Shown here piece by piece: positions 949-45,359 of a stretch of DNA of 50,070 nucleotides. Location: IMG/VR virus record IMGVR_UViG_3300034072_002243, positions 1-50,070 of that record. One strand, 5' to 3'. A program made the translations under genes and the position numbers. The notes beneath the pieces were generated by a model that was given only the letters and a program-made list of their open reading frames with translations, had not been told where the DNA came from and did no database searches. Each line of letters starts with the position of its first letter. Position 1 is the first letter of the stretch. This DNA is from a virus (lineage: Duplodnaviria; Caudoviricetes).

Positions 949-963
949 GAACATTACTGGAAC
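949..963 (+). promoter_or_regulatory. Alphaproteobacterial LexA (SOS) box
   Basis: GAAC-ATTACTG-GAAC, 15 bp before the ATG at 979; TTGACG at 919-924. Confidence 0.7.
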
Positions 964-978
964 AAAGAGCTGCGCCAG

Positions 979-1188
979 ATGCCACACCCCACGCTTGACG
1001 AACACCTGCCCATCACGGTCGAAGCCCTCGACGAAACGGGACGCATCGTCGAGGTGATCGCGCGCTGCGCGAATGTGACCGTCGCGCGCGGCGCATTCGA
1101 CGCTGCGAAGACCTGCCGCCAGGGCGTCGAGATCATGATCCGCGACCGCGCGCGTGTGATCGCATCAGAATTTCTACCCTTGGCTTGA
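979..1188 (+). CDS. Small hypothetical protein, probably SOS-inducible
   Basis: 69 aa ORF with normal composition directly behind the SOS box. Confidence 0.7.
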   Translation: MPHPTLDEHLPITVEALDETGRIVEVIARCANVTVARGAFDAAKTCRQGVEIMIRDRARVIASEFLPLA

Positions 1189-1195
1189 CAACCCC

Positions 1196-1282
1196 CCTTT
1201 ACAACGCGGAATTTCCGCACTATATTCAAATCATCGCCAAGGTGCGATGCGGGCGCCTCGCCGATACGGAGGCAGGAGACAA
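1196..1282 (+). repeat. 87-bp promoter/operator/RBS cassette, copy 1
   Basis: CTTTAC-N17-CTATAT with GCGGAA-T-TTCCGC palindrome in the spacer and GGAG RBS; 81/87 identical to 3109-3195. Confidence 0.9.
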
Positions 1283-1286
1283 GACC

Positions 1287-1730
1287 ATGGCCCTCTACGA
1301 CATCGAATATTCCTGCGGCCACAGCGAAACCAAGCAGCTCTACGGCAAGCACGACACCCGCCACAGCTATCTCGCATGGGCCAAGGCCTCCGGCCACTGC
1401 CCGGCCTGCCGCGCGCAGAACGACGAGCTGTACTGCGCCGGCGTCGAGGCCGAGCACAGCCTGCCGCCGCTGACCGGCTCCGAGAAGCAGGTCAAGTGGG
1501 CGCGCGATATCAGGGCCGAGAAGGTGGCCAAGCTCGCCGCCTCGATGGCCGAGCGCGCCGAGAAGTGGTCGCCGGAGAATGTCGCCGAGCTGACCGCCCG
1601 CACCGAGGTGATGTTTGCCGCCCTCGCCGCAAAGACCGAGGCGCGCTACTGGATCGACGCGCGGAACCTGACCCCCGATGTGATCGGCGCGAATGCCTGG
1701 CGCGAAGCCACAAAGGAGGCCGGCAAGTGA
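1287..1730 (+). CDS. Hypothetical protein with a putative Zn-binding motif
   Basis: ATG after the cassette RBS; YSCGH...CPAC motif; LTGSEKQVKWARDIR. Confidence 0.8.
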   Translation: MALYDIEYSCGHSETKQLYGKHDTRHSYLAWAKASGHCPACRAQNDELYCAGVEAEHSLPPLTGSEKQVKWARDIRAEKVAKLAASMAERAEKWSPENVAELTARTEVMFAALAAKTEARYWIDARNLTPDVIGANAWREATKEAGK

Positions 1731-2638
1731 CGGCAAACCCCATCACCAGGACCCTCGCGCGGCTCATCGCCGCGCAGGGCAGCCCGGTCAAGTCCGTGAC
1801 CCTCGCCGCCCCCGCCATCCATGGCGACACCATCATTGCCGTCGACTGGGCCGAGTTTGCCGACGAGCCGGTCGAGGTGGCAGAGCGCGGCGTGACCATG
1901 ACGGTCAGGAGCCGCCTGCCGACCGCAGCCGCGACGCTGCCCCCCTCGCCGCGCATCGAGCAACTGGCGCTGGAGACCGCCTGGGGCTATGGCGCATGGG
2001 ACGTGCTGCGCACCTATATCGCCCCCGGCTACAGCGGCCCGCTGCCGCCCTACATGGCCGGGTTTGAGGCGGCCGCGCGCGAACAGGGCTACATCACCTG
2101 GAGCTGGCGCCCGATGATGGCCGGCCCCGAGTTGCGCGCGAAGGCCTGGGCAGACAAGGACCGGACGCTCTGCCGCTACACCCTCGGCCGATCCGGCGCG
2201 CTGCCAGATCTGGCCCTGCGCGTGGCGCAGCCAGCTTCGCAGCTGGTCATCACGCTCGGCGCGCAGGCAACCCCTGCCAGCACCGCGCCGGATCGGGCCG
2301 GTCACAGCCCCCGCGCCGCGCGGGGCCGTCGCTGGTCCAACTGGACCTACACGGCGACGCAGGCCCAAAGGCAAAAGCTGCTGTATCTCATGGACCAGGC
2401 CGGCCAGCGCGAGGAGATCCCCGACAACCTGACCCGGGCCGATGCCGCGCGCTGGATCAACCGGCTCATGTCGGGAGGCACGCTCTCCAGCCTGAGTGGC
2501 CCCGCACCCGCCACACCCGAGCAGCGCGGCTATCTCGGCCGCCTCCTGCGCAAGGCCGGGCTCTCGGACGCACTGCCGGACGACCTGACCAAGAGCCAGG
2601 CAAGCCGCTGGATCGACCAGCTGAAAGGCAATCGATGA
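1727..2638 (+). CDS. Hypothetical protein with two C-terminal DUF3072-like helical repeats
   Basis: GTGA overlap with upstream gene; repeats ATQAQRQKL..LTRADAARWINRL and ATPEQRGYL..LTKSQASRWIDQL. Confidence 0.7.
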   Translation: MTANPITRTLARLIAAQGSPVKSVTLAAPAIHGDTIIAVDWAEFADEPVEVAERGVTMTVRSRLPTAAATLPPSPRIEQLALETAWGYGAWDVLRTYIAPGYSGPLPPYMAGFEAAAREQGYITWSWRPMMAGPELRAKAWADKDRTLCRYTLGRSGALPDLALRVAQPASQLVITLGAQATPASTAPDRAGHSPRAARGRRWSNWTYTATQAQRQKLLYLMDQAGQREEIPDNLTRADAARWINRLMSGGTLSSLSGPAPATPEQRGYLGRLLRKAGLSDALPDDLTKSQASRWIDQLKGNR

Positions 2639-4235: not shown

Positions 4236-4637
4236 ATGATCACCAAGTTTCAATCCGAACTTCCCGCCGGTCGCGCGCGGTTCTTGGCCAGAGGGCGGCA
4301 TTATGCCGACGCCGTGAACCAGATCGCAGAACGCGGCCTCGAAGCCGCGCTTGAAGCCACCGCCATTTTGGGAGGCGTCCGGCAGCCGAAAGGCATTGCA
4401 CGGAGTTTGGTCAAGGCCGTTGCCAAATCCGGCCCCGTGCCCGCGCACCGGATATCCAGGCGCGCTCGTCGCCGCTATGAGGATGGCGCGCCGGTTATCG
4501 ATATCGTGGTCGAGACGCCGCAGTTGACATGGAAATATCGCGGAGACCGGCAGATAGGGATGATCGAATGGCTTCCTGCATTTGTTGTCACCGACCGCTG
4601 CAGCGCACCAGTTCTTCGCTCCCCGTTGCCAGGATGA
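4236..4637 (+). CDS. Hypothetical protein (first gene of a two-gene module)
   Basis: GGAG RBS; 133 aa. Confidence 0.65.
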   Translation: MITKFQSELPAGRARFLARGRHYADAVNQIAERGLEAALEATAILGGVRQPKGIARSLVKAVAKSGPVPAHRISRRARRRYEDGAPVIDIVVETPQLTWKYRGDRQIGMIEWLPAFVVTDRCSAPVLRSPLPG

Positions 4638-4640
4638 ACC

Positions 4641-5069
4641 ATGGCCACCACATTCTCTTTACTGTCACAGATCTGCGGCCTCTCTCATCGAGAGGCCGCC
4701 CAGCTCCTGAACGTGCGCCTTGACACTGTGAAGTCATGGTCCACTGGACGCAACCGCGTGCCCAACGCCGTCCTTGCAGAGCTCGCGGAATTGGCGGCGC
4801 GGATCGAGACGGCGGCGACAGAAACGCTGAAACAGATCGCGGACGCGTCTGAAAAGCACGGACCACCGTCCGAGATCGAGCTGGGCATTGCAAGCGACGA
4901 CGCGGAAGCGGTTTCCATCGGTTGGCCATGCGTCGGCGCCCAATCCGCCTGTCTCGGCCTTGTCCTCGCTCGCGGCATTCGAAAAGGCTACCAGTTCAAA
5001 GTCATCCCGCGCGGGTCGACTGTCGCCACAGCAGCCGCCGCCGATGCGCATGACTCCGGCACAAGATGA
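4641..5069 (+). CDS. XRE-like helix-turn-helix protein
   Basis: GLSHREAAQLLNVRLDTVKSWSTGRNRVP at the N-terminus. Confidence 0.75.
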   Translation: MATTFSLLSQICGLSHREAAQLLNVRLDTVKSWSTGRNRVPNAVLAELAELAARIETAATETLKQIADASEKHGPPSEIELGIASDDAEAVSIGWPCVGAQSACLGLVLARGIRKGYQFKVIPRGSTVATAAAADAHDSGTR

Positions 5070-5110
5070 GACTTGGTCGGGCCACCGGCACGCCAGGCGC
5101 CGAAGCCCCC

Positions 5111-5293
5111 TCAATTCACCCGCCCCGGCCGGTCCACCTCCCCTGACCTGAAATCCTCCGCTATGCCGGCGAGCCAGTGACCGAAGGTCTCGGCCGGCAG
5201 GCCGAGAAGGGCATAGGCGGAGAGGATGTGCTCGACAGCGGCGCGTGCCGCCGTCTGCCGGTCCTCGTCGGCGGGCGCCTCATGTGCTGCCAT
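5111..5293 (-). CDS. Small hypothetical protein, last gene of the late operon
   Basis: 60 aa, overlaps the end of the upstream gene. Confidence 0.5.
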   Translation of the reverse strand: MAAHEAPADEDRQTAARAAVEHILSAYALLGLPAETFGHWLAGIAEDFRSGEVDRPGRVN

Positions 5294-5630
5294 GACCGCC
5301 CCCCTTGCCGCCGCGCCAGATGGCCAGCACGTCGCGCGCCGTGGCGAGCGGGTCCCGGCTGGCCCGGAGCATGAACACCGCCCAGTTGCGACCCGTCAGC
5401 GCGAGGCCGGCCGCGACTGCGTCGGACCAGGACGGGTCCAGATTGAGAAACTGGCGGATCGGATCCGCGAAGATGACCGCCGCGCCGATGCCGGCGGCCA
5501 GCGCCAGCAGGCGGCCGGAGAGGGTGAGGTCACGCTGCAGCATCGCGCCGAGCACCGCGAAGCCGATGATCACGGCCCATTTGGTCAATGATGCATGGGC
5601 CAGCCAGCCCAGCCATTCCTGCTGCCGCAT
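5280..5630 (-). CDS. Putative holin
   Basis: 116 aa, 2-3 hydrophobic segments, GGAG RBS, basic C-terminus. Confidence 0.55.
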   Translation of the reverse strand: MRQQEWLGWLAHASLTKWAVIIGFAVLGAMLQRDLTLSGRLLALAAGIGAAVIFADPIRQFLNLDPSWSDAVAAGLALTGRNWAVFMLRASRDPLATARDVLAIWRGGKGGGHGST

Positions 5631-5701
5631 TGATGTCTCCGGAGATTTGCGCCGCAGCGCGGAAGGAAAGGTCCGCCGCCCTGCGCGGGCGGCGGCAAAG
5701 G

Positions 5702-6172
5702 TCAGACGGTGACGATGTCCGCCTCGGTCAGATTGCGCAGCCGCTCGGCATAGATCTCAGACCCGCTCCAGAGCGGCCAGACCCGCTTTGCCAGCGCCTC
5801 AACCGGATAGGCCGGATTGCGCCACAGCACGAAGGGCTGTTGCGGCGCGGCACTTGCCAGCTCGATGTCAGCCACGGCCACCAGAGCCGGCAGCGCCAGC
5901 GGCACAGCAGCGCGGATCGTGAGCCAGATGCCGGCCTCTCGCACGGCAGGCGAGATCTCGTTGCCGTCACCGTCAAAAACCGCCTCGGCGGCGATCACTT
6001 CGCAGCGCAGGCCGGCATAGCGCCGGCCTTCGAACACGCCCGAGAATTGCTGCGCGATGGCGGGCAGTGCCAGAGCCCCACCCTCCTCGGCTGGTTGGAT
6101 ACCGAGTACCTGCAGGTTGACGTCTTCCGGGCGCAAGAAATGCAGGATGTGGTCAATGGTCATCTTTGTCAT
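5702..6172 (-). CDS. Hypothetical protein, possible fibre-assembly chaperone
   Basis: ATGA-coupled behind the lectin-like fibre gene. Confidence 0.55.
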   Translation of the reverse strand: MTKMTIDHILHFLRPEDVNLQVLGIQPAEEGGALALPAIAQQFSGVFEGRRYAGLRCEVIAAEAVFDGDGNEISPAVREAGIWLTIRAAVPLALPALVAVADIELASAAPQQPFVLWRNPAYPVEALAKRVWPLWSGSEIYAERLRNLTEADIVTV

Positions 6173-7509
6173 GCTGCAGCCACCGCGTTGAACAGGTTGA
6201 GCGCGTCGGCGTCGGACAAGGCGAAACCGCCGATACCGGCTATACGGGTTTGGGAGTTGAGCCTGTCTTGGCCGTTTGCCCCGTTGCAGGCAATTCCGAT
6301 GCCGGCTGGGGTGCCCACCATCATCGGCCGAGTAATCGTACCAGGACTAACCGAACCCGCCTTGACCCACACCGCCCCGTCCGGCCGCCACGTTGCGACC
6401 ATTGTAAACTCAGTACCCCTCGGCAGCTGTGCGAGGGTCCCTAGACCCGGACCGGACGTCGGGCCGTTCGAACCCACGGTACTACCCACGCCACCGTCCG
6501 AAAGGCGGCGGAACAGAGTAAACCGGTTATTTCCATCCGCACGGATATCCACGAAATGTACGAACGGGGGAGCAGACTGGTAGTCGATGCCGCGCCATAC
6601 CATCGTTAAACCGGTCACGCTCGGGTTTACCGCCAATCCCGCAGCAGATGCGGGAATAAAGAGCGCATCCGGGGCGACTGTGTTTGACCCAAACGGCATA
6701 AGGTAAGGCGTCGCGGTGACCTGAGGTGCTGCCAGAACGCAGGTGAAATCGATGAAGTTTCCTGCGACCCAGCCGGATGAGCCGCCGGAGATCAGTCTCA
6801 GGCGCACTCGGCTTGCGCCGGCGGGGCAAACCAGTGACGCTGATTGGAGATCGGGCGTTGCCGGGCTGATGAACTGCGAAGGCGTCGAGACCAGGATGCC
6901 AGAGACATAGGCGCTGGACGGAGCGGATCGCCACGAAACCTCAAGTTGCGGCGCGCCCGGACCAGGACACTGCCGCTCTGCGATGACCATCGAAGACGTG
7001 TACGTCACGCCCTCCGTGAGGCCCTGCTGCTCGCCCGGACGCAGCTCCCAGAACGTCCCATTCCAGACGCCATAGACGCGGACGCGCGCCGCTGGCAGGC
7101 CCCGGTAGGTCAGCAGCTCGACAACCTCCGTCGTCAGACCGGCTGTTGCAACGCCCGTCGCGGACCAACCCGGCAATGACCCGCCAGCACCAATAACGCC
7201 GAGTGTGGCCGTCGCAAAATCGGCAGCGCCGACCAGATTGATCCAGCCCTCACGCGAGTCATACCCCAAGTCCGTCCGGGCCATGGCACCATTCGCAAAC
7301 GGCAAAGATATGCCAGCGCTGTTCACGGCACGCCGCTCAGAGGCGCGGGTGTGATAGCCGTCAATCGTCTCCATCGACACGCGCCGGCCGCCGAGCCGGA
7401 CGAAGCCGGACCGGAAATCCGCCGCGAACTGGAACGGACGCATCCAGGCCGGGCCGGTGGCGCCCGAGACCATGGGGCCGATGCCCCAGGCCCCAAGTTT
7501 CTTGATCAT
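6169..7509 (-). CDS. Putative fibre/spike protein with beta-sandwich carbohydrate-binding-like domains
   Basis: 446 aa rich in G/S/T and aromatics; visibly lower GC than neighbours. Confidence 0.55.
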   Translation of the reverse strand: MIKKLGAWGIGPMVSGATGPAWMRPFQFAADFRSGFVRLGGRRVSMETIDGYHTRASERRAVNSAGISLPFANGAMARTDLGYDSREGWINLVGAADFATATLGVIGAGGSLPGWSATGVATAGLTTEVVELLTYRGLPAARVRVYGVWNGTFWELRPGEQQGLTEGVTYTSSMVIAERQCPGPGAPQLEVSWRSAPSSAYVSGILVSTPSQFISPATPDLQSASLVCPAGASRVRLRLISGGSSGWVAGNFIDFTCVLAAPQVTATPYLMPFGSNTVAPDALFIPASAAGLAVNPSVTGLTMVWRGIDYQSAPPFVHFVDIRADGNNRFTLFRRLSDGGVGSTVGSNGPTSGPGLGTLAQLPRGTEFTMVATWRPDGAVWVKAGSVSPGTITRPMMVGTPAGIGIACNGANGQDRLNSQTRIAGIGGFALSDADALNLFNAVAAA

Positions 7510-7521
7510 GGTGATGGTCCT

Positions 7522-8250
7522 TCAGATCGCGAGATCGCCGGAGACGAGCCACTGCGCCGCCGTGCCGCCCGCATTGGCGATGACGACCGCCGCTGCCGCA
7601 GCCCAGCGGGCCCGGGTGCGGGTCACGCCGTCGACATTGACGACGGTTGCCCCTGCCCCGGCGGTCAGGTTGACCCGGCCTGTGCCGGCCTGGACGAGAA
7701 CGAAGTTGAAGCCGATCGGGAGGTCCGCCGGCAGCGTGACTGTGCCGTCAGCCGATCGGCCGATGACGACAGTGCGGCCGATGGTGCCGGCGTCCGGCGT
7801 GTAGGTGGCCGCCGTGCTGGTGATGATCCCGGCGCTGTAGTCGACAATGCCTTGCGGGCCGATCGGGCCGACGGGGCCTTGCGGACCAACCGGGCCTTGC
7901 GGGCCGAGCTCCCCGGGGATGCCGCGCGCGCCTTGCGGCCCTGCAGGACCAACCGGTCCACGAAGGTCGACAGCTGTGCCAAGCGTCCCGTCGGGGTTGC
8001 GCAGCGCCAGGCTGGAGCCTGTCCACGCGTGGCCGGGAACATGCGCTGCAACCGCCGCCGCCACTTCCGCCGCGACTTGCCGCTGCTGGTGCAGGGCATC
8101 CTGTGCATTGGCGGCGGTGGCGGCCGCTGCGCTGGCGGCGCTTGCGGAGGCTGCAGCACTGTCGAGCGTTTCACGGTGCAGCCGCACCACGTCACCCTGA
8201 AGATCTTTCGCGATCTGCAGGGCCACGCGCTCTGCCGTCGCGGCGCTCAT
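7522..8250 (-). CDS. Collagen-like fibre protein
   Basis: Twelve G-X-Y triplets [37 protein letters not shown] after an Ala-rich coiled coil. Confidence 0.75.
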
Positions 8251-8507
8251 GCCCGCACCACGACAACGGTCGCCGGTCCCGAAGCCCCGGCGACAAACAC
8301 ACGATCCCCGGCGGCCAGAAACGCGAAATGCACCGCGGTCCGGGACGCCCCGCCAAGCAGCAGCGCCGGGGCGTCTGCTGCCGGCACACTTGCGCCGACA
8401 TGGACGCGCACGTCTTCGACACTCAGCCGCTGGATGAGCACGTCAGGCGAGTTGTTCGCCACTTCGGTCCAGGCGGTGGTGATTTCAAATCGCAGGGTCT
8501 CAGTCAT
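8247..8507 (-). CDS. Hypothetical virion-associated protein
   Basis: 86 aa, ATGA-coupled on both sides. Confidence 0.65.
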   Translation of the reverse strand: MTETLRFEITTAWTEVANNSPDVLIQRLSVEDVRVHVGASVPAADAPALLLGGASRTAVHFAFLAAGDRVFVAGASGPATVVVVRA

Positions 8508-8728
8508 CGGGTCCCCTCACATCTCGATTGCAGGTCGCGGACGACGCTCAGGCTGTCGGCGAGCTCGTCGCTCACCGTGTCGGCATCGGCCTCGGTCCAG
8601 TGGATCTCGGAGAGCAAGGGAGCCAGCTGGTCACAGCTTGCGGGAGCCGTGCTGGCGGGCAGCGGCATGCTCCCGCAGCCGGCGGCGGCGCTCGTCAGGA
8701 GGCTGACGGCGAACAGTTTCGCGCGCAT
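8504..8728 (-). CDS. o-spanin (Rz1-like lipoprotein)
   Basis: Signal peptide with lipobox AAG|C; overlaps the 3' end of the Rz-like gene. Confidence 0.65.
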   Translation of the reverse strand: MRAKLFAVSLLTSAAAGCGSMPLPASTAPASCDQLAPLLSEIHWTEADADTVSDELADSLSVVRDLQSRCEGTR

Positions 8729-35726: not shown

Positions 35727-37655
35727 TCATGCGCCGGGCCACGGCTCCCAGTCGCCGGTCTTCTCGATCGGCTTCAGGCGGATGCCGCGATAGACGGTGC
35801 GCCCGTCGGTCTTGGCCTTGCGGAATCCCTTCTTCACCGCCTTCATCGGCAGCTGCCGGGTGAAGGTGCTGGCGTTCCAGATGTTGACCCCCTGCCCCTC
35901 GCAGAACACCTTGAACCGGGTGTAGAGATCGCCCGGCGAGGCCGTGTCGCTGTCATCCCCCGTCACCTGGCATTCCGCGTCGATGAAGGCCCCGATCGGG
36001 TCACTCTCCTCGCGGTAGGTGTCGGTTGCGGCGCGCACCGCGTCCGGGATCATCAGCCCGTGGGTGAGGTATTCGAGCGCGCCTTCCAGCAGCCAGTTGA
36101 GCACCCCTGCCCGCTCGCCCCACAGCCGGTCGGGCAATTGCCGGTCTACCTCGGCAACGGGGATCTGCACCTCCCATGGCACCAGCAGCACGCGCCGCCA
36201 GATGCCGTCGTCCGCGCCGCGCACGTCCGGCTTGTGGTTGCCCGAGATGACCAGCTTGAAGGTCGGGTAGACCTCGTTGAACTCGGCATGCAGGCGGCGG
36301 ATCAGGATCGGCTCGCCGGAGGTGAGCGACTTGATCATGCTCTCGCGGAACTTCATGCCCTGCTCGGGCTCGGCCGCACGCACCAGGCGCGCGCCGGGCA
36401 CACGGGCGAGATCCGGCGTTGCCTCACCGCCCTTGCGCCGGTCGTCGCCGGCCAGCGTCTCGAAGGGCACGGTGGTCGAATACTCACCCATGATGCGGGC
36501 GATCAGGTCGACCAGCGTCGACTTGCCGTTGCGCCCCTCGCCATAGAAAAACACGAACACCTGTTCGGTGGTCAGGGCCGTGAGGGCATAGCCGAAATAG
36601 CGCTTGAGGAACCCCCGTATGTCGGCCTGCGGCTGCACGCGCTCGAGGAAGGCGAGGAACGCCGGACAGGTGGCGAGCGGGTCATAGTCCACCGGCACCA
36701 GCTTGGTGATCATGTCCTCGCGCACATGCGGGCCATGCTGCAGCGTCCACAGCCGGCGCACATAGGCCGGGTCCGGGCTGTCCGGATCCTCTTCCGAGGT
36801 AAAGCGCATGGTGCCGGACAAGAGGTTGATCGCCAGCGGCTCCCGGTCCATGTCGCGCAGCAGCTGCGAGACATAGGGCTCAGCCTCACGCAACATGTTG
36901 TCCACCTTGCCGCTGGATCCGGATGTCTTGCCATAGCGCCGCCGCGCGGCCTTGCGCGAGGCAACGGCCTTTTCCGCTTCCGCCCCCTGGCGCAGGGACT
37001 CCTCGAGACCCATGCGTTCGGATTTCTGCTCCGGTGTCTCGTCCTTGGGCTTTGGCCAGGTGCGAAGCAGCCGCAGGGCGTCCTTGCCGGCGTCGATGGC
37101 CAGCTGTTCGCGCTCGCTCGGGCGGATGAAAAACGTCTCGGCGGCGATCAGCTCGGAGGCCTGATGTGCCAGCTTGCGCGTCTGGGTGTTGTTGCCGACA
37201 TCCTCGGCCCAGCGGGTGCCGTCATAGATATACCAACCGACGTTCGCCACATGCACCACGTCGGCGCGGAACCGGTGCAGGAAGCGCCGGCCGTTGCCGA
37301 TGTCGGTCTCCGGCTCTCCGGCGCAGACCTCGAGGTGCGGATCAGCGCCCGCGCCATCGTCAATCCCGTCGCCCGCGTCGAAGACCGGCTCCCAGTCGCC
37401 ATCGGGCATGCCGTCGAACCCGCCCGCATCTTCGCCCATATCCCCGCCCATATCGCCGCCCGGCCGGGGGTGGCGCGAGGGGGCAACGCCGGACGCGGCA
37501 ACAGGCGTGGAGGCGTCCCAGGTGTGGCTGTCGGCGCCGTCCACCAGCTCGAGGATCTGGCGATCAGCGTCCGACAGGGCCGGACTTCCGGCAGCCGTCG
37601 TCATCGCCGGCGCGTCTTGCTGACGGCCCGGGCCTTGCGTCTTGCCCTCATCCAT
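35727..37655 (-). CDS. P4-family/D5-like SF3 helicase (primase-associated)
   Basis: TDIGNGRRF, Walker A YGEGRNGKST, IKSLTSGE, DDGIWRR. Confidence 0.93.
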   Translation of the reverse strand: MDEGKTQGPGRQQDAPAMTTAAGSPALSDADRQILELVDGADSHTWDASTPVAASGVAPSRHPRPGGDMGGDMGEDAGGFDGMPDGDWEPVFDAGDGIDDGAGADPHLEVCAGEPETDIGNGRRFLHRFRADVVHVANVGWYIYDGTRWAEDVGNNTQTRKLAHQASELIAAETFFIRPSEREQLAIDAGKDALRLLRTWPKPKDETPEQKSERMGLEESLRQGAEAEKAVASRKAARRRYGKTSGSSGKVDNMLREAEPYVSQLLRDMDREPLAINLLSGTMRFTSEEDPDSPDPAYVRRLWTLQHGPHVREDMITKLVPVDYDPLATCPAFLAFLERVQPQADIRGFLKRYFGYALTALTTEQVFVFFYGEGRNGKSTLVDLIARIMGEYSTTVPFETLAGDDRRKGGEATPDLARVPGARLVRAAEPEQGMKFRESMIKSLTSGEPILIRRLHAEFNEVYPTFKLVISGNHKPDVRGADDGIWRRVLLVPWEVQIPVAEVDRQLPDRLWGERAGVLNWLLEGALEYLTHGLMIPDAVRAATDTYREESDPIGAFIDAECQVTGDDSDTASPGDLYTRFKVFCEGQGVNIWNASTFTRQLPMKAVKKGFRKAKTDGRTVYRGIRLKPIEKTGDWEPWPGA

Positions 37656-38850
37656 GGGCAGCCTCCTTGACGTGATCTTTCAGAATGTCGTTGAAATCCT
37701 TGCCCTCCGGCGCCCAGGCCGAGCGGTCGGTGAGGCCGGGGCGGGCCCATCTGGCCCGGGCGCGCTGGTGGACCTGCTCGGCGGTAAACCGGTCGCTGTC
37801 GCTGTCGCCGAGGCGCAGAACCTCGGTCACATGCGGCGGCAACAGCACCGCGGTGTCGTCGTCCATGTCCGGCACCGGGCCGGGGACCATCAACGCGCGG
37901 CCCGTCTTCGTCTTCAGGGTCGGATGCGGCACGGTCGCCGCCGCCTTGCCGCCCATGTGCTGCAGCGAGATCGACACCCAGTAAGCGGTGCGGGCATAGC
38001 GCTCCGGCGCACCGCGCATCTCGGACAGCATCACCGACAGGGTCGTCTCCCAGCCCTCGCCGATCACGATCCGGTCAAAGATGCGCGGCTGGTGCAGCAC
38101 TATGACACTGCGGCGCTTCGAGCCCCTGATCTTGCGCGAGGGCAGCGCCTCGCCGCTTTCGGGGCAGGTCACGCGCATCTTGTTGCCCGGCTTGAACGGG
38201 TCGATCCAGGTGATGTGCACGCCCTGGACGGCATCGGGCCCGAGGATCGGCAGGATCAGCGCCGGGCCGGAGAACAGCACATAAGGCGCGTCCTTTCCGG
38301 CCTCGTCCTTGCGGGCATGCCAGTATTTCATATGGGCGACGAAGCGCAGCGGCAGGGCCACCGGGCACGGCAGCAACCCGCGCCCGCGCATGTAGTCCGC
38401 GCCTTCCGTGCCGCGCACAGGGCCACCGAGGCTGAGGATCTCGCGCGCCTTGCGGATCTCCTTGGCCCGTTCCTGCTCCGCATAGCGCTGCTGCTCGGCG
38501 CGCCTGGCCTCGCGCTTGCGTTCCTCTGCCGCCAGCTCCTCCGGCGAGGGCGGTGGCGCATCGAGCCGCCCGCCCAGCTTCTCGACGGCCTCGTGAAACG
38601 ACAGCCCGTCGAGATCCATGACAAAGCGGATATGGTCGCCGGAGGCGCCGCAACCGAAGCACTTGTAAACGCCCTTGGCGTCGTCGACATGGAAGCTCGG
38701 GCTTGTTTCCGGGTGGAACGGGCAGCAGGCCCAGAAGTCCCGCCGGCCAACGTTGGTCTTGGCCCGGTCCCAGGTGACGCGCCGGCCAACGAGATCGGAC
38801 AGGGGCTGGTCCTTGATGCGGTCGATCTCGCGCGGGGAGACGGACTTCAT
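37648..38850 (-). CDS. DNA primase with CHC2 zinc finger and Toprim-like domain
   Basis: CCPFHPETSPSF..YKCFGCGASGD; IGEGWETTLS; LGDSDSD. Confidence 0.9.
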   Translation of the reverse strand: MKSVSPREIDRIKDQPLSDLVGRRVTWDRAKTNVGRRDFWACCPFHPETSPSFHVDDAKGVYKCFGCGASGDHIRFVMDLDGLSFHEAVEKLGGRLDAPPPSPEELAAEERKREARRAEQQRYAEQERAKEIRKAREILSLGGPVRGTEGADYMRGRGLLPCPVALPLRFVAHMKYWHARKDEAGKDAPYVLFSGPALILPILGPDAVQGVHITWIDPFKPGNKMRVTCPESGEALPSRKIRGSKRRSVIVLHQPRIFDRIVIGEGWETTLSVMLSEMRGAPERYARTAYWVSISLQHMGGKAAATVPHPTLKTKTGRALMVPGPVPDMDDDTAVLLPPHVTEVLRLGDSDSDRFTAEQVHQRARARWARPGLTDRSAWAPEGKDFNDILKDHVKEAAHG

Positions 38851-40445
38851 GCCGCCACCTCGCATATTTCCGTGCCCGATTTTTGTGTATCGAATACACA
38901 TTTCACACTTGCGCGCGCGGGAAATCGTGTGTATAAAATACACATCGAAACGGAGAGAGCGAGGTGCGAAGCAGCGAAGTCATCCGGAAGATCGAGGCGG
39001 CAGGTTGGAGAGAGGTTCGCGTCAAAGGCTCCCATCACCACTTTCGCCACGACACCCGGCCCGGGACGGTCACCGTCCCCCACCCCAAGGCGGACATCCC
39101 GAAAGGAACGCTCGCCAACATCGAAAAGCAAAGCGGTGTCCGCCTCCGGTAGGCGGGCACCCAGCCCCGGATGACCCGCTTGCCGCACCTTGAGACAGGA
39201 CAAGAGACCATGAAGACCCAGTACATCGCCGTCGTGCACCAGGACGCCCCGGAAGGCGTCTTCGGCGTCAGCTTCCCGCATGTTCCGGGCTGCGTTGCCG
39301 TTGGCGACAGCCTCGACGAGGCCCTCGCCAATGCGGCGGAAGCCCTCACCAGCCATCTGCAGGTCTGCCTTGATTTCGGCGACCCAGTGCCCGCACCGCA
39401 GGGCAGCGTCACCCGCGCGGATATCGATCCGGAGGGCTTCGTCCTGCTGACCCATGTCGAGGTCGAGCGTCCGGCCGTGGTCAAGCGCATCAACATCAGC
39501 ATGGCTGAAGATCTGCTCGCCAGCATCGACGCCGCCGCCAGCGCGCGCGGCCTCACCCGCAGCGCCTATCTGGCCGAAGGCGCAAGGCGGCTGATGCAGG
39601 AGGGCTAAGCCCCTCCCCTCGCCGGGTGCAGCGGAATCATGCACAGTGACACGCAGAACCGCAGTCTTGCCACCGGAGGCAGCATGACGAAACTGAGCGA
39701 CCATAAAGTCGCCGCCGCTGCCCTGTGCGCGGGCTCCGTGCTCATCGGCCTGTGCATCGGCGGCATGGTAACGAACTGGGACAAGGCTGCCGAGTGGATG
39801 AGCGCAACGGGCGCATGGTTTACAACGCTCGTTGCTGTCGTGTCCGTCGTATTCATTTATCGGGAATTCAGGGCAACACAGGACGACGGAGTAAAACGCG
39901 ACATCGTTACGATAACCAACGCCCGCCATTTTCCGCGCCGAATCCGGACAGAGATGCGAGCCTATCTCACCGCCTTGGATCGACCGTTTACCGAGATCAA
40001 GCAACTGATTGAAGGCGCACAAATCGGATATCGAGACCTTTGCAATCTCGCTCCGTTGCACTTGCCACCCAATCCGCTGGCGGATGATCTCAGGCTGGCC
40101 ACAGCAGGTCAGGCACTTGCCGAGCGGTTGGTCGGTCCTCATAAGGGCTGTCAAACACTTGCCGAACGACTGAGCGCGGTTACAAAAATCGAAGCATCTG
40201 ACCCACAAGGGAAGAAGCGCGCGATCATCGCATGTCAGAGGTCCTTCAAACGGAAAGAAGCCCTGCTCGAAGATGCTCGCATAGAGGTGCGCGCTCTGAT
40301 CGAAACCGCAACATGCTACATTGCCGCTCTTGACGAGGCAGAACAGCGGCTCACGGCCCAACTCGCCGGGTACAAACTGAAACGCGCTGAATAGCGCACT
40401 GATCGCCACATCAATTGGCGCGAAGTCGCTCAAAAGATCACGCAT
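38847..40445 (-). CDS. Candidate antisense 'bridge' ORF (532 aa) spanning hicAB and the next gene
   Basis: GGAGG RBS; ATGCGTGA overlap with the upstream methylase stop and ATGA overlap with the primase start; protein looks like shadow sequence. Confidence 0.4.
   Translation of the reverse strand: MRDLLSDFAPIDVAISALFSAFQFVPGELGREPLFCLVKSGNVACCGFDQSAHLYASIFEQGFFPFEGPLTCDDRALLPLWVRCFDFCNRAQSFGKCLTALMRTDQPLGKCLTCCGQPEIIRQRIGWQVQRSEIAKVSISDLCAFNQLLDLGKRSIQGGEIGSHLCPDSARKMAGVGYRNDVAFYSVVLCCPEFPINEYDGHDSNERCKPCARCAHPLGSLVPVRYHAADAQADEHGARAQGSGGDFMVAQFRHAASGGKTAVLRVTVHDSAAPGEGRGLALLHQPPCAFGQIGAAGEAARAGGGVDAGEQIFSHADVDALDHGRTLDLDMGQQDEALRIDIRAGDAALRCGHWVAEIKADLQMAGEGFRRIGEGLVEAVANGNAARNMREADAEDAFRGVLVHDGDVLGLHGLLSCLKVRQAGHPGLGARLPEADTALLFDVGERSFRDVRLGVGDGDRPGPGVVAKVVMGAFDANLSPTCRLDLPDDFAASHLALSVSMCILYTRFPARASVKCVFDTQKSGTEICEVAA
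38884..38944 (+). promoter_or_regulatory. hicAB promoter with two palindromic operators
   Basis: TGTGTAT-CGA-ATACACA (38884-38900) and TGTGTAT-AAA-ATACACA (38928-38944); TTGCGC-N17-TATAAA. Confidence 0.8.
38964..39152 (+). CDS. hicA: HicA family toxin (mRNA interferase)
   Basis: GWREVRVKGSHHHFRH..VTVPHPKADIPKGTL. Confidence 0.95.
   Translation: MRSSEVIRKIEAAGWREVRVKGSHHHFRHDTRPGTVTVPHPKADIPKGTLANIEKQSGVRLR
39210..39608 (+). CDS. hicB: HicB family antitoxin with C-terminal RHH
   Basis: FGVSFPHVPGCVAVGDSLDEA..KRINISM..TRSAYLA. Confidence 0.95.
   Translation: MKTQYIAVVHQDAPEGVFGVSFPHVPGCVAVGDSLDEALANAAEALTSHLQVCLDFGDPVPAPQGSVTRADIDPEGFVLLTHVEVERPAVVKRINISMAEDLLASIDAAASARGLTRSAYLAEGARRLMQEG
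39684..40394 (+). CDS. Membrane-anchored hypothetical protein (moron)
   Basis: GGAGG RBS; two N-terminal hydrophobic helices then a helical domain; lower GC. Confidence 0.7.
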   Translation: MTKLSDHKVAAAALCAGSVLIGLCIGGMVTNWDKAAEWMSATGAWFTTLVAVVSVVFIYREFRATQDDGVKRDIVTITNARHFPRRIRTEMRAYLTALDRPFTEIKQLIEGAQIGYRDLCNLAPLHLPPNPLADDLRLATAGQALAERLVGPHKGCQTLAERLSAVTKIEASDPQGKKRAIIACQRSFKRKEALLEDARIEVRALIETATCYIAALDEAEQRLTAQLAGYKLKRAE

Positions 40446-41178
40446 CCCCAGCCTCCCCAAACAAGGGCCCGGCGTCTGCGGCAGGGCTCACGCTGCGGGC
40501 AAGGGCAAGGTCGCTGAGGCGGCTGTGCCGCTGCGGGGCGCCGGGCGGGATCCACACCGGCGGACGCGGGGCCGCGCCATCAAGGCGCCAGACCACCCAG
40601 CAATAGGCTGTTGCCGTGCTCGCGTCCGGGTCCCAGCCGCCGCGCACCAGCGGCACGCGGTCACAGAAGATGCCGATGACATGCGGCGGCCGGGGCAGGA
40701 ACAGCTCGCGCCCGCGCTGGATCGTCTCCAGCCAGCGCAGCTGGACGAAGACGGCGATGCCCACGCGCGGGGCCAGCTCAAAGGCGCGCTCGACAAACTT
40801 CTGTGGCAACTCGCCATAAGGCGGATTGGTGATGATCCAGTCATGACCGCAAGGCGCGGCCTCGGCCTCCGGCAGCGGGCGCAGGAAGTCCCATTCCGGC
40901 CCGGTCAGGCCGAAGCCCCGGTCATAGAGATCGCTCGCCAGCACCTGCCCGAAATACTCGGCCAGCGGCACGGCCATGTGCCCGGCGCCGCAAGCCGGCT
41001 CCCACACGCTCCACGCCTGACGCTCGCCAATGCCCAGCACATCGACGCAGAGCGCCCGGGTGGCCCAGGGCGGCGTGGCGTAATAGTCGCCCAGCCCCTT
41101 CGGCTCGACGCGCGAGGCCATGACGGCGCGGGCATTGGCAACGCGCGGACCAGTGGCGGGCGCACCTGCCTCACGCAT
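40438..41178 (-). CDS. Orphan amino-(N6A/N4C) DNA methyltransferase
   Basis: DYYATPPW, WEPACGAGHM (SAM-binding) and IITNPPY (catalytic). Confidence 0.85.
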   Translation of the reverse strand: MREAGAPATGPRVANARAVMASRVEPKGLGDYYATPPWATRALCVDVLGIGERQAWSVWEPACGAGHMAVPLAEYFGQVLASDLYDRGFGLTGPEWDFLRPLPEAEAAPCGHDWIITNPPYGELPQKFVERAFELAPRVGIAVFVQLRWLETIQRGRELFLPRPPHVIGIFCDRVPLVRGGWDPDASTATAYCWVVWRLDGAAPRPPVWIPPGAPQRHSRLSDLALARSVSPAADAGPLFGEAGDA

Positions 41179-41560
41179 GACCGGCCCTCGCGCGCTTGCC
41201 CGCCCGGCTGGCCGATTGCAATTGTCTTGCTCTTTCAACAGGTTTCACACCCTGTAGTCTGTGAAACACCCTGTATTCGCCCTCATCGCCGCAACTGGGC
41301 GCGGTCAGGTGGGCTGGCTCCTGCTCCCGCAGAAGCTCGAACGGGTTAAGGTCCGCCCAGATGCACAGGAGCAGCAGCGGGCCGGTGGTGATCTCGATGC
41401 CGACACAGGCCCGGCTGACGGACGCGCGCGAGATCCGCGTCTGGTCCTGCACCTGTTGCAAGGTCACGCCGCGCGCCGCGATGACGGCCTTCAGCGCCAG
41501 CCCGAGCCGCCGGTAATCGAGGACAGCGCCTTTGAGGAGATGGGCATAGTCAGTGTTCAT
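41171..41560 (-). CDS. XRE-like HTH protein
   Basis: GVTLQQVQDQTRISRASVSRA. Confidence 0.65.
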   Translation of the reverse strand: MNTDYAHLLKGAVLDYRRLGLALKAVIAARGVTLQQVQDQTRISRASVSRACVGIEITTGPLLLLCIWADLNPFELLREQEPAHLTAPSCGDEGEYRVFHRLQGVKPVERARQLQSASRAGKRARAGHA

Positions 41561-41844
41561 GCCGCCGCCCTCCCCGCGTCCTGCCCGGCGGCAGCCCTGA
41601 CAGCCTCCGCCTCGCCGCCGAGGGCCACGAGCGAGACGTCGTTCCAGCGGGCCAGCGCCACCTGCGATGAGGCAGAGACCAACGCCGACCCGCCGCGCAG
41701 GACGGCGTTGACCTCCGCCACGGTGACGCCGGCTTCCGCCGCCACCTGGCGCGGGGTCATCCGGCGGTGGATCTTCAGGGCCATGGTGAACAGCCGCAGC
41801 AGATGCGGCACGCGATATCCGGGACGAGTGTCAGACGTGCTCAT
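41557..41844 (-). CDS. HTH protein
   Basis: MTPRQVAAEAGVTVAEVNAVLRG; ATGA-coupled. Confidence 0.6.
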   Translation of the reverse strand: MSTSDTRPGYRVPHLLRLFTMALKIHRRMTPRQVAAEAGVTVAEVNAVLRGGSALVSASSQVALARWNDVSLVALGGEAEAVRAAAGQDAGRAAA

Positions 41845-42647
41845 GCGGTCCTCCGGATGTTGATCTCGCCCCGGCGCAGGGGCATTGCGCGGGGCTGCAT
41901 TTCGGCCTTCAGTGCGGCGGCGGTGGTGTAGACGCGCAGGGCGTGGCAGGCGCAGTAGGAGCCGCGCGACACCGGCGCGCCGCAGAACAGGCTGGCAATG
42001 CCGCGTGGGTCATGGCTGACCGGATAGCGGCAGGACCGGGGTGCCAGATCGAGCAGCGGCACGGGCCGGGCCTCCTCGGGCAGCAGCTCCGGTGCAGGCC
42101 GCGCCGGAGCCTCCGGGGCGGTGACCGGTGCGGCAACGGCCTCGGTCTCGGCGGACGCGTCAGCCACGGGCGCAACCAGCGTCAGCCCGGGCTTTGCGGC
42201 GCGCGCGCGGGCGCTGATCTTCTCGGGCGCGCGGCGCGGATCGGACGCGTGAAGCCGGATCTTGGCGCGGGAGACGACGCCGATCACCGCGCCGCGCGAC
42301 ACGCGGCCATGCTTTAGGCTCAGCTGCCCGGCGATCTGGCCGGCGCTGAGGCCTTGCGCGGCCAGCTTGCGGACGGCAGCGGTCTTTGCCTCCGGCGGCA
42401 GCAACCGCCAGGTGAGCTCGTCGACGGCCACCTCAGGCAGCGCATCTTCCGGCACTGTCCAGCCGTTCTTGCCACGCGCCACGGCGATGCCGCCGCGCTG
42501 GCAGAGGCCGATGACCGAGCGCCGGTTGATCTCGCCATAGGTTTTCGACAGAACGGCCACCATGCCGGAATAGCTGAGGCCTTGGCTGGCAAGCGGGCGC
42601 AGCAGGGCCTGCCGCTCGGCGGTGCTGAGATCGAGCCAGGCGGTCAT
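41841..42647 (-). CDS. GcrA-like regulator with a duplicated N-terminal HTH domain
   Basis: Two QGLS..R..VIG repeats; C-terminal LLDLAPRSCRYPV..FCG..SYCACH. Confidence 0.85.
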   Translation of the reverse strand: MTAWLDLSTAERQALLRPLASQGLSYSGMVAVLSKTYGEINRRSVIGLCQRGGIAVARGKNGWTVPEDALPEVAVDELTWRLLPPEAKTAAVRKLAAQGLSAGQIAGQLSLKHGRVSRGAVIGVVSRAKIRLHASDPRRAPEKISARARAAKPGLTLVAPVADASAETEAVAAPVTAPEAPARPAPELLPEEARPVPLLDLAPRSCRYPVSHDPRGIASLFCGAPVSRGSYCACHALRVYTTAAALKAEMQPRAMPLRRGEINIRRTA

Positions 42648-43186
42648 CAGCGGCCCCCATCCACGAGATGCAGCGGGCGCTTGATCTTTGCGACCTCCTG
42701 TCGAAGCTCAGTCAGCGTTTGGTCGAGGGTGCCAAGCGCCCGGTCGGCCAGCTCCGCCTCGGTCGGCGTGATCACCATGTCTTCGGTGCCCCGGGCCACG
42801 GTGGTCATCACCTCGCCAAAGGCGCGCATCAGCTTGGCATGGGCGGCGTAGAACCCGGCTGTCGTCGCCTCCCCGTCCGTCTCGGGCTCGGCGATGCGCC
42901 GGCCATTGACCTCGGCCATCACCGCCGTCACCAGCGCCAGCCCGCATTCGGATTCCAGCACCAGCGCCGCCGGGATCGAGATCGTGTCGGCATGGGCAGG
43001 CGAGGTCAGGCGCTGCATCTGCGAGGTGGACAGGCCGCATTTCTTGCCGGCGCGCTCAAGCCCGCCGCACAGCTTCACCAGGTCGCGCGTTGCGCCCTTC
43101 ACCCGATGGAACCACTCGTCGGCAATGCCGCAGGGGGTTTCGCGCGGGGTGTCACCGATGTGTTTGCCGATAAATTTGGAAGACAT
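42647..43186 (-). CDS. CII-like phage regulatory protein
   Basis: KGATRDLVKLCGGLERAG..ALVLESECG..ITPTEA; position downstream of cro. Confidence 0.6.
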   Translation of the reverse strand: MSSKFIGKHIGDTPRETPCGIADEWFHRVKGATRDLVKLCGGLERAGKKCGLSTSQMQRLTSPAHADTISIPAALVLESECGLALVTAVMAEVNGRRIAEPETDGEATTAGFYAAHAKLMRAFGEVMTTVARGTEDMVITPTEAELADRALGTLDQTLTELRQEVAKIKRPLHLVDGGR

Positions 43187-43252
43187 CACGTTGCTCCCTT
43201 GAAAGGGCTTGGTGGACCGGACCCGGCCGCGCCGGGCAAAAGGCAAAAGGGT

Positions 43253-44539: not shown

Positions 44540-44600
44540 TTAAGGGAACATATGGACCCATATGTCAAATCATTTGTTCCCCTCGCCTGTACCCGTAAAC
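44540..44600. promoter_or_regulatory. OR-like operator/promoter region
   Basis: GGGAAC-ATAT-GGACCC (44544-44559), half-site GTTCCC at 44576-44581, minus-strand TTGACA at 44568-44563. Confidence 0.65.
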
Positions 44601-44618
44601 ATTTGTCAGGCTGCGACC

Positions 44619-45359
44619 ATGAGCGAAGATTGGATTTCCATTGTCGAACGCGAGGCGGAAGCACGCGGCATGACCCTGCAGGCGTTGGCCCGCAAAGCCG
44701 GCCTCAATCGGGCTTATTTCCGCATTGTGCGCCAGCGGCCAACCCCGTTTCCGCGCGGCGACACGCTGCTGCGGATATCGGAGGCGCTCGGAGTGAACAT
44801 CACGACCCTCTTGAAGAGCGCTCTTGAGGAAAAAACGTCAGCGCCTAGGCCCGAGACACAAAGGCCAGAGCGAGCACAGCCAACAATGACCCTCGTTCCA
44901 GAACTCAATGTGAAGGTTGGCGCGGGCGGTGGCGGCGTACCATCCCTGCTCATGGAAAACGGCTATGAGTCACAGGATGAGACCGAGGCCTTTCGCGAGC
45001 GGTGGGGCTTGCCGGACAGCTACCTCAGAAACGAAGCCAGGGTCGCATCGGAAGCCGCCTTCATCATGGAGGTCATGGGTGATTCCATGATCGACCCGAC
45101 ACAGCCGATGTCACCGGGTAGCTTCCTGCCAGGGGATCGGGTGATCATCGACACAAACGACCGCATCCCGTCGCCTCCCGGCCCCTTCGTCGTTTGGGAT
45201 GGCTACAGCATGGTGCTGAAGATGGTTGAGATCATCCATGGAACGGACCCTGTCCGGATCCGGCTTTCGTCGAAAAACCCAGCCTATCTGCCCTATGAGG
45301 TGCTGATCGAGGAAGCCAACATAGCCGGGCGCGTAAGAGGGCGAATCACGATTTTCTAA
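44619..45359 (+). CDS. CI-like repressor (HTH plus S24 peptidase)
   Basis: MTLQALARKAGLNR HTH; GAG cleavage region; VMGDSM and LKMVE catalytic motifs. Confidence 0.92.
   Translation: MSEDWISIVEREAEARGMTLQALARKAGLNRAYFRIVRQRPTPFPRGDTLLRISEALGVNITTLLKSALEEKTSAPRPETQRPERAQPTMTLVPELNVKVGAGGGGVPSLLMENGYESQDETEAFRERWGLPDSYLRNEARVASEAAFIMEVMGDSMIDPTQPMSPGSFLPGDRVIIDTNDRIPSPPGPFVVWDGYSMVLKMVEIIHGTDPVRIRLSSKNPAYLPYEVLIEEANIAGRVRGRITIF

Follow-up and report, generated by a model that had tools for sequence, protein, structure and literature searches.

A stop-free reading frame, probably a ribosome relay, spans reversed cargo genes in the early operon of a temperate phage and its relatives

The virus record IMGVR_UViG_3300034072_002243 was analysed over its whole length of 50,070 bp (65% GC), referred to here as the window. 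It belongs to a lambda-like, temperate phage, the nearest relative of which was a prophage of Pannonibacter tanglangensis. In the minus-strand early operon of this phage, three genes of opposite orientation, hicA, hicB and a gene for a predicted membrane protein (mem), lie between a DNA methyltransferase (methylase) gene and a primase gene, and the strand antisense to these three cargo genes is one continuous open reading frame (ORF), here called the bridge. Comparison with related prophages showed that selection maintains such a frame across unrelated cargo, free of stops, in codon register with the cargo, led by a Shine-Dalgarno (SD) sequence and joined to both neighbouring genes, without constraint on the encoded protein. 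We consider it likely that the bridge is a relay ORF in a noncontiguous phage operon, kept for its openness and not for its product, by which ribosomes are carried on to the next replication gene.

An earlier note on this DNA had described an ATG with a GGAGG ribosome-binding site that overlaps the methylase stop, a frame of 532 codons that stays open from there across mem, hicB, hicA and the DNA between them, and an ATGA overlap of its stop with the primase start. All of these were seen in the sequence. The methylase TGA (40440-40438) begins 5 nt downstream of the first base of the bridge ATG (40445-40443), and the junction reads ATGCGTGA. At the other end the bridge TGA (38849-38847) overlaps the primase ATG (38850-38848), which is preceded by GAGGTGG. 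From stop to stop the frame comprises 547 codons (40487..38847). The starts of hicA (38964), hicB (39210, or 39171) and mem (39684, or 39639) all leave a remainder of 0 on division by three, as do the codon boundaries of the bridge, so that every bridge codon is the reverse complement of one cargo codon. The exact register claimed for the three genes thus held, and only the odds given for it had to be modified: 1 in 27 is fair if the primase ATGA is taken to fix the frame, and the value is otherwise 1 in 9, for a shared frame only. The GC content of the bridge at the three codon positions was 0.69/0.48/0.65, and the peak at third positions (GC3) that marks the real genes of the window was missing.

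The two junctions of the bridge were indistinguishable from the other five of this operon, which join real genes. The seven in a row comprised one TGATG, three ATGA and three ATGnnTGA, with an SD-like run at each. The layout of a noncontiguous operon, in which the minus-strand methylase and primase/helicase genes flank plus-strand hicA, hicB and mem, was present here and, in like form, at 29 further sites.

Relatives of the primase were collected from genome contigs, in which 534 of 600 matched stretches encoded relatives and the best 80 were kept (14 full length), and from viral contigs (30 loci). The full-length relatives amounted to 42 loci, or 34 after removal of near-duplicates, and 20 of them form a clade at at least 49% identity. 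Members of this clade are prophages of Pannonibacter, Roseibium, Labrenzia, Stappia and Breoghania. Six clade loci (L004, L008, L010, L014, L087 and L090) are free of cargo, and in these a co-directional gene, such as one for a Bro-N protein or a DnaA_C-HTH protein, ends at or overlaps the primase start. At fourteen independent loci, called primary loci here, the DNA immediately upstream of the primase holds cargo on the opposite strand: the window, L002, L003, L005, L006, L007, L009, L011, L012, L013, L082, L083, L088 and L092. L001, a 93%-identical copy of the window, was counted together with it. At all 14 the frame in primase direction was open over the entire cargo, for 247-760 codons and always in codon register, and throughout the clade a long frame ended at the primase start (20/20 loci). 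The earlier note had proposed to examine whether related prophages with other inserts in this position keep the frame open and had named frame-breaking inserts as refuting evidence. None of the latter was found at the primary loci: a stop in the crossing frame occurred in 0 of the 13 other cargo-bearing loci, and likewise in 0 of 16 further embedded sites described below.

The cargo itself was diverse. Its strand was assigned by Pfam matches and cross-locus blastp, and its starts were fixed from the boundaries of ORFs and of hidden Markov model (HMM) matches. L011 carries a hicAB pair with about 40% identity to that of the window. Pfam matches identified pentapeptide-repeat membrane proteins in L006, L007 and L082 and a DUF6161 protein in L092, and the 399-aa protein of L083 had no significant Pfam match. 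Eight loci (L002, L003, L005, L009, L012, L013, L088 and L092) carry membrane proteins of 230-260 aa that form one divergent, fast-evolving family, its members being 13-26% identical. The genes upstream of the cargo differed as well and included Dcm-type and N6 methylases, a sliding clamp and a ParB-like protein. A log-likelihood score for sense and antisense codons trained on the primases, together with a score for amino-acid composition, was tried and discarded: L006 scored the wrong way and the strands were not separable. Eight more distant primase loci (28-39% identity) had co-directional upstream genes and no evident reversed cargo, which is neutral to the question.

The cargo also led to further sites. 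When 132 genomes of the host family were searched with an HMM built from the membrane cargo family (alignment A2), matches were obtained at 26 places, which lie in 20 of the genomes. Six of these matches were primary loci, judged by identical primase identities and cargo sizes, and the other 20 represented 19 distinct sites. Sixteen of the 19 were embedded between co-directional ORFs, and every one of the 16 had an open in-register crossing frame, 255-752 codons long. The remaining three sites, unembedded or ambiguous, had antisense stops, 12 in L220 and one each in L221 and L222. The genes downstream of the cargo encoded primases, DnaB-type helicases (L213, L227), a DUF1376 protein (L224), a TSCPD-domain protein (L225) and unknown proteins. 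Tandem cargo lay under a single bridge in L214 (699-700 codons, cargo GC3 0.38-0.40) and in L218/L226 (752-753 codons). In L213, L219, L224, L225 and L227 the predicted cargo ORFs showed antisense 'stops' only in an N-terminal extension; this extension reaches past the HMM match and past the start of the downstream gene and was for that reason excluded from the gene, a judgement that favours the relay reading. One prophage has two distinct bridged cargo sites within a single operon, L225 and L208 (both G010:C1), about 1.5 kb apart.

Stops in an in-register antisense frame arise only from sense TTA, CTA and TCA codons. The cargo genes of the 14 primary loci, with GC3 of 0.36-0.70, contained none of the three in 4613 codons. 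In 13 of these genes (2925 codons) other codons ending in A were used regularly (GTA 32/191, ATA 36/192, CCA+ACA+GCA 154/589) versus CTA 0/203, TTA 0/54 and TCA 0/77. The trinucleotides TTA, CTA and TCA were common in the other two codon phases of the same genes (240 occurrences), and avoidance of the motifs as such was rejected on that ground. Under its own composition, the probability that a cargo gene has no such codon ranged from 0.74 (hicA of the window) to 6e-13 (L006); it was at most 6e-4 for low-GC3 cargo, and for mem, which lacks all three codons, it was 8e-6. Three sets of genes served as controls. At least one such codon was present in 10/10 co-directional upstream genes that were Pfam-supported or long (GC3 0.63-0.78; 29/4625 codons), in 16/20 primases (29/8156 codons) and in 8/9 host paralogues of the pentapeptide proteins (41/3734 codons), of which two with GC3 of 0.38-0.42 had 8 and 14. 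Rates in control genes of these loci were 0.6-1.1%. From the lowest control rate, 0.63%, 29 such codons would be expected in the cargo, and the probability of none in 4613 is 2e-13.

The DNA outside the cargo genes was open too. Non-cargo DNA made up 1887 nt of the 14 bridges and was free of stops in the bridge frame, and the product of the shuffle probabilities was 1.3e-13. Over all 30 sites (11,525 codons, GC 41-61%), the stops in the three co-directional frames numbered 0 in the bridge frame and 360 and 593 in the other two. Synonymous changes of Leu and Ser codons can clear all antisense stops only in the in-register frame, which makes this frame the natural choice.

Both ends of the bridge were joined to the neighbouring genes in the relatives as in the window, by stop and start codons that overlap or abut, the SD lying within the coding sequence upstream. 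At the 5' end, the upstream stop overlapped the start of the bridge frame in 13 of the 14 primary loci (as ATGA, GTGA, TGATG, TAATG or ATGnnTGA); in L005 the bridge ATG lies 13 nt past the upstream stop, behind GGGAG. An SD core of 4-5 nt stood a few bases 5' of the bridge start in 13/14. Among the cargo-found sites the 5' overlap was seen in 14 of 16, or 15 with L207, and in L210 the junction was masked by N. At the 3' end the bridge stop overlapped the primase start as NTGA in 12 of the 14 primary loci, the exceptions being L011, where the stop is at offset 11 and the bridge ends 14 nt inside the primase, and L082, where it ends 1 nt before it. The same overlap was found in 12/15 cargo-found sites with an identified downstream start, and overall NTGA (offset 1) was present in 24 of 29 sites with such a start. 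The coupling to primase that the earlier note had proposed is supported by these overlaps at both ends of nearly every bridge; that Rho and reinitiation take part is inferred.

Some junctions recurred between sites. A conserved junction of about 25 nt, GTTG-N5-6-GGGAGTC-N5-6-ATGA, was present in L003 (5975-6004), L207, L213, L215, L223 and L224, in front of differing downstream genes (primase, DnaB, DUF1376), and the 5' junction GGAGG(T)GGGGTGATG came after differing upstream genes. The cargo may thus move as an in-frame cassette that bears both junctions.

In the mechanism that we propose, the three reversed genes between methylase and primase would make the early operon noncontiguous, and the 1.6 kb of operon mRNA antisense to the cargo would be kept as a single ORF. 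Ribosomes would enter the bridge by coupling at the methylase stop, with the aid of the bridge's own SD, and would meet no stop. This uninterrupted run of ribosomes would be the selected property: a transcript covered by ribosomes would not be naked for Rho termination and would be unable to pair with cargo mRNA, and the terminating ribosomes would be passed on to the primase start. The reversed orientation would allow lysogeny-expressed cargo to sit inside the operon without a terminator that blocks the lytic transcript and without read-in to the replication genes. The frame always spans the full gap, though a short leader ORF would suffice for reinitiation, and hence the likely benefit is that ribosomes shield the RNA from Rho or keep it from pairing with cargo mRNA. 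The bridge mostly ends as NTGA, though another frame would end harmlessly, and hence the hand-over itself looks selected. Rho was present in 5/5 host genomes tested, and the mean C-skew was +0.017 in bridge RNA versus -0.099 in primase mRNA.

An alternative is that the frame is translated for protection of the RNA, against RNase III cutting of the duplex with cargo mRNA or against other decay, and not for avoidance of Rho, the coupling to primase being incidental. Overlapping transcripts of noncontiguous operons and excludons are described as substrates of a double-strand RNase in an atlas of such operons (PMC11034616), and coverage of the whole antisense stretch would suit this explanation as well. 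The prevalence of NTGA speaks for a selected hand-over, as other terminating frames are viable (L011), and we regard RNA protection as the sole benefit as unlikely. The effects of Rho and of RNase are not separated by the present evidence.

The earlier note had held that the act of translation rather than the protein is selected. Two sequence pairs were close enough for the ratio of nonsynonymous to synonymous substitution rates (dN/dS) to be estimated. The window and L001 differ by 111 substitutions and no indel over 1599 nt, and their dN/dS was 0.21 (mem), 0.06 (hicB) and 0.11 (hicA) in the cargo frames and 0.13 in the primase, versus 1.04 in the bridge frame. The pair L012 and L208 gave a cargo-frame value of 0.12 and a bridge-frame value of 0.92. 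Between the window and L001, a null in which each substitution was matched for its segment, its codon position and its consequence for the cargo predicted about 4.2 changes that create a stop, and 0 were seen (P = 0.015). Together with the purge of three codons, these values suggest that it is indeed passage of the ribosome, not a product, that is preserved.

That the bridge is a true antisense overlapping gene with a functional protein, like gene 10 opposite olg1/olg2 of Pseudomonas phage Fc02, is consequently very improbable. The bridge is a long ORF with an SD and a start, it is conserved as an ORF, and a report on Fc02 describes gene 10, in an early operon and opposite lysogeny-expressed exclusion genes, as active (PMC9936078). 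Neither purifying selection on a second protein nor homologues of one were found. Bridges over different cargo have no common sequence, and similarity between bridges was always below similarity in the cargo frame: cross-locus blastp was much stronger in the latter (4e-26 vs 6e-8; 2.5e-32 vs 1.5e-16). Pfam was matched by 0 of 11 bridge ORFs, and that of the window matched 0 Pfam families and 0 PHROGs. The L006 bridge (4472-5947, 491 aa), which may be cited in favour of a protein, is recorded as a predicted protein in a public collection, in which the pentapeptide cargo with the start chosen here is not recorded; this record indicates that gene callers can choose a relay ORF over the real gene. 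Overprinting of the cargo on an old co-directional gene was also considered and rejected: both HicAB and the pentapeptide proteins belong to old families, and at cargo identities of 20-30% a dead frame would no longer be open.

A compositional artefact, that is, a shadow ORF open by chance in GC-rich DNA with coincidental overlaps at its ends, draws its support from the window. TTA, CTA and TCA are rare at high GC3, for which reason in-register antisense frames are often open, and hicA and hicB have GC3 of 0.76-0.83. Sense codon usage did account for openness over these two genes, but failed to do so for the set as a whole. Cargo of the relatives, at GC3 of 0.36-0.66, lacks codons that do occur in control genes from the same loci and hosts, the spacers are open, the other frames are full of stops, and both junctions overlap in almost every locus; we give this explanation next to no credence. 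Other long ORF pairs open on both strands of the window (954-1742, 1160-2653, 5570-6583, 7180-8706 and others) were handled as ordinary GC-rich shadow ORFs. It is just as improbable that the three codons are lacking for the sake of the cargo's own translation, through rare-codon or tRNA-dependent control unrelated to the other strand: all three need tRNAs with U at the wobble position, and TTA-dependent regulation is known in other bacteria, but host genes and neighbouring phage genes use the codons, as do unembedded homologues of the cargo (L220), and the stop-free spacers, the register of two to three cargo genes and the start/stop overlaps would be left unexplained.

Several points count against the relay reading. 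The caveat of the earlier note, that GC-rich genes often have open in-register antisense frames, was borne out: of 17 high-GC3 reference genes in the window, 8 had such a frame open throughout, among them the helicase (642 codons), the primase (400) and the methylase (266). Under the codon usage of the phage, the probability of no antisense stop was 0.84 for hicA, 0.64 for hicB and 0.54 for mem. Outside the cargo genes, the window's bridge comprises 252 nt, which were stop-free in 3.7% of shuffles; the odds of the common register were 1/9 to 1/27 as said, and other parts of the window have antisense ORFs that measure 702 and 818 codons from stop to stop. By itself the window is therefore mildly unusual, and as suggestive but post hoc evidence it is weak; the case rests on the relatives. 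These in turn are all prophages of one bacterial family (30 sites), and since some sites share junction motifs they are not fully independent. L222 (G079:C408, cargo 1153-1914) has same-strand neighbours and is unembedded, yet its antisense frame is open for 239 of 253 codons at GC3 of 0.51; possibly an embedded site has left this relic. Translation of the bridge we infer from its evolution only. In the window itself the bridge RNA has a slight excess of G (C-skew -0.053) and is a poor proxy for a Rho site. The primases have their own SD, and reinitiation may accordingly not be strictly needed. A hairpin masking the primase SD or AUG was found in only a few loci (L003, L088 and L013), most of 21 z-scores lying between -1.4 and +1.0. 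Finally, the model leaves unaccounted for the cost of a junk protein of 250-760 residues per infection.

The coordinates of the bridge and of the genes around it are collected in Table 1.

Table 1. Features of the early region of the window.
Feature	Position	Strand	Remarks
CI-like repressor	44544-45359	+	HTH (helix-turn-helix) and peptidase S24; divergent from the minus-strand early operon
DNA methyltransferase (methylase)	40438..41238	-	phrog_799, 3.4e-47; likely start ATG at 41178
GGAGG Shine-Dalgarno core	40452..40456	-	6 nt 5' of the bridge ATG, within the last codons of the methylase
Bridge (relay) ORF	38847..40445	-	532 codons; ATG start, TGA stop
mem, predicted membrane protein	39639..40394	+	251 aa (236 aa from 39684); GC3 0.61-0.62, below neighbours
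hicB, antitoxin with ribbon-helix-helix tail	39210..39608	+	Pfam HicB_lk_antitox 1.4e-23, weak RHH match; alternative in-frame ATG 39171
hicA, toxin of toxin-antitoxin pair	38964..39152	+	Pfam HicA_toxin 4.9e-22; GTG start
Two 18-nt palindromes TGTGTAT-NNN-ATACACAT	38884-38901, 38928-38945		44 nt apart, in the 114-nt divergent primase/hicA spacer
Phage DnaG-type primase	37648..38850	-	Pfam Zn_ribbon_DnaG 2.5e-25, DUF7146; Toprim_3 just below cut-off
D5-like primase-associated helicase	35727..37655	-	Pfam D5_N 7.3e-20, DUF5906, Pox_D5; ATGnnTGA on primase stop

The genes hicA and hicB are separated by 57 nt and, as an adjacent toxin and antitoxin with a DNA-binding tail, are predicted to form a HicAB pair. 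The two palindromes next to hicA, both of which are run through by the bridge ORF, are probably the operator or promoter of hicAB, judging from their position. A promoter scan found no sigma-70 consensus site, alphaproteobacterial promoters not being modelled by the scan, and a terminator scan found one terminator-like site versus 2.0 expected from shuffles. The latter result, together with the unbroken chain of joined ORFs, is indirect evidence for a single transcript across the flanking genes and the antisense stretch. In L002, L003, L005, L006, L007, L009, L012, L013, L088 and L092 the cargo starts 24-45 nt from the primase ATG, so near that its promoter would have to lie either within the primase gene's coding region or in the conserved short junction.

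The mem region has 55% GC versus 65-73% in its flanks. The cargo as a whole is an insert of deviating composition between adjacent genes of an operon, missing in the cargo-free relatives, as is typical of a moron. The mem protein had no match in Pfam, PHROG or PADLOC. In a comparison by hhalign with the membrane cargo family of the relatives, it reached a probability of 44% (E = 2.4e-4) over 51 columns of the N-terminal membrane segment only, and blastp gave no match to this family at 1e-5. One member of the family, the L003 cargo (5219-5956, minus strand), is named DUF4760-containing in a UniRef record, although Pfam gave no DUF4760 at E <= 0.01, and is annotated as a hypothetical protein in a record. 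It had a weak PADLOC match to 'gop' (1.8e-5), and the other nine of ten proteins had none. The match hints at a possible function of the membrane cargo family in exclusion or defence.

Close relatives of the site were also found in metagenome contigs. In one contig, with 93% identity along the entire stretch, the 5' spacer of the bridge holds two indels, one of +1 and one of -1, separated by 4 nt (40404/40408). Another, from run X4, keeps primase, hicA and hicB, and in it 1423 nt replaces 619 nt of the mem segment (window 39797-40417). The difference of 804 nt is 3 x 268, judged by length alone. This replacement indicates that the site swaps its third cargo gene between close relatives.

The early operon (37648-43246, minus strand) runs in the order cII-like gene, GcrA-like gene, 95-aa ORF, gene for a 129-aa HTH protein, methylase, bridge, primase and D5 helicase, and genes for terminase, portal and tail come after, on the same strand. 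The methylase had no Pfam match. A homologue of the cell-cycle regulator GcrA is encoded at 41841-42647 (minus strand; Pfam 1.1e-25), adjoining the DNA methyltransferase, and we take this pairing to be reminiscent of the GcrA/CcrM system of the host. A DNA search of a phage collection with window positions 37000-42000 returned two records, both from a single phage, that matched 3% of the query, inside the primase. In tblastn searches against phages the mem-like protein had no match, and the pentapeptide cargo had only generic repeat matches (22 records). A metagenome scan with the primase alignment gave 80 loci, all with the N-terminal zinc-ribbon part only (host DnaG-like) and none full length, and was left unused.

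These prophages suggest how a noncontiguous layout can exist where Rho polices naked RNA, namely by keeping the antisense stretch translatable. If the relay reading is true, translation of the opposite strand dictates synonymous codon choice, a new kind of constraint that is detectable from sequence, and some long 'hypothetical proteins' are relay ORFs that have been called in place of the real cargo. Temperate phages would then have a way, with no terminator needed, to house defence or toxin-antitoxin genes that are expressed in lysogeny within a lytic operon, and a design rule for reversed cassettes in synthetic operons would follow. A wider extension is speculative and rather doubtful at present: that relay ORFs are general in bacteria with ribosome-dependent transcription, with reversed genes kept in register, purged of TTA, CTA and TCA and joined on both sides; that the cargo is a cassette (GGAGG-N-GGGGTGATG / GTTG..GGGAGTC..ATGA) marking a terminator-free hotspot of defence or exclusion; and that the purge is a sequence-only signature of noncontiguous operons and of long ORFs that ought not to be annotated as proteins.

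A full-text literature search of main texts yielded no description of stop-purged bridging ORFs. Several known systems resemble the bridges in part. Shadow ORFs, abundant in the window, have the same register and owe their openness to the same lack of TTA, CTA and TCA; they are driven by composition, end at gene ends and have no start signals, whereas bridges cross spacers and several genes at low GC3, with an SD and overlaps at their ends. Phage morons are likewise extra genes of deviating composition that lie between adjacent operon genes and are missing in relatives; the cargo here is of toxin-antitoxin or membrane-protein type. Morons are usually co-directional and have their own promoter and terminator, while the cargo here is reversed and has no terminator beyond what is expected from shuffles. 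Leader peptides and upstream ORFs show that translation, and not its product, can be what matters, and passage of the ribosome would be the selected property in both cases. They are short and regulatory; bridges extend over hundreds of codons, lie within an operon and constrain synonymous codons of genes on the other strand.

Gene 10 of Fc02 is also an early lytic ORF, opposite the genes olg1-olg2, which are reported to be expressed in the lysogen from their own promoter and to exclude other phages (PMC9936078). It differs in having an activity of its own, which in that text is abolished by a stop codon (PMC9936078), whereas the bridges here lack constraint at the protein level. The overlapping stop and start codons (ATGA, TGATG) by which genes of phage and bacterial operons are coupled are of the same kind as both junctions of the bridge. 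Classical coupling links two protein genes, and here one of the links is an ORF of 250-760 codons without a conserved product that runs over opposite-strand genes.

The closest likeness in layout is to noncontiguous operons and excludons. The founding paper on the noncontiguous operon is said to be that of Saenz-Lahoya in 2019. In the Staphylococcus aureus men operon, in prophage 80alpha and in Listeria, an opposite-strand gene splits co-directional genes, an antisense transcript is produced and expression is mutually exclusive. The S. aureus atlas lists four such units in prophage 80alpha (PMC11034616). Transcription there must cross a long untranslated antisense stretch, which the same atlas explains by the uncoupled, 'runaway' transcription of Gram-positive bacteria (PMC11034616). 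The antisense stretch is treated as untranslated in that account, whereas in the present prophages, whose hosts are Alphaproteobacteria with Rho, it forms a single ORF that has no stop, is led by an SD and is linked to the genes on both sides. We regard the arrangement described here as a form of noncontiguous operon combined with classical translational coupling.

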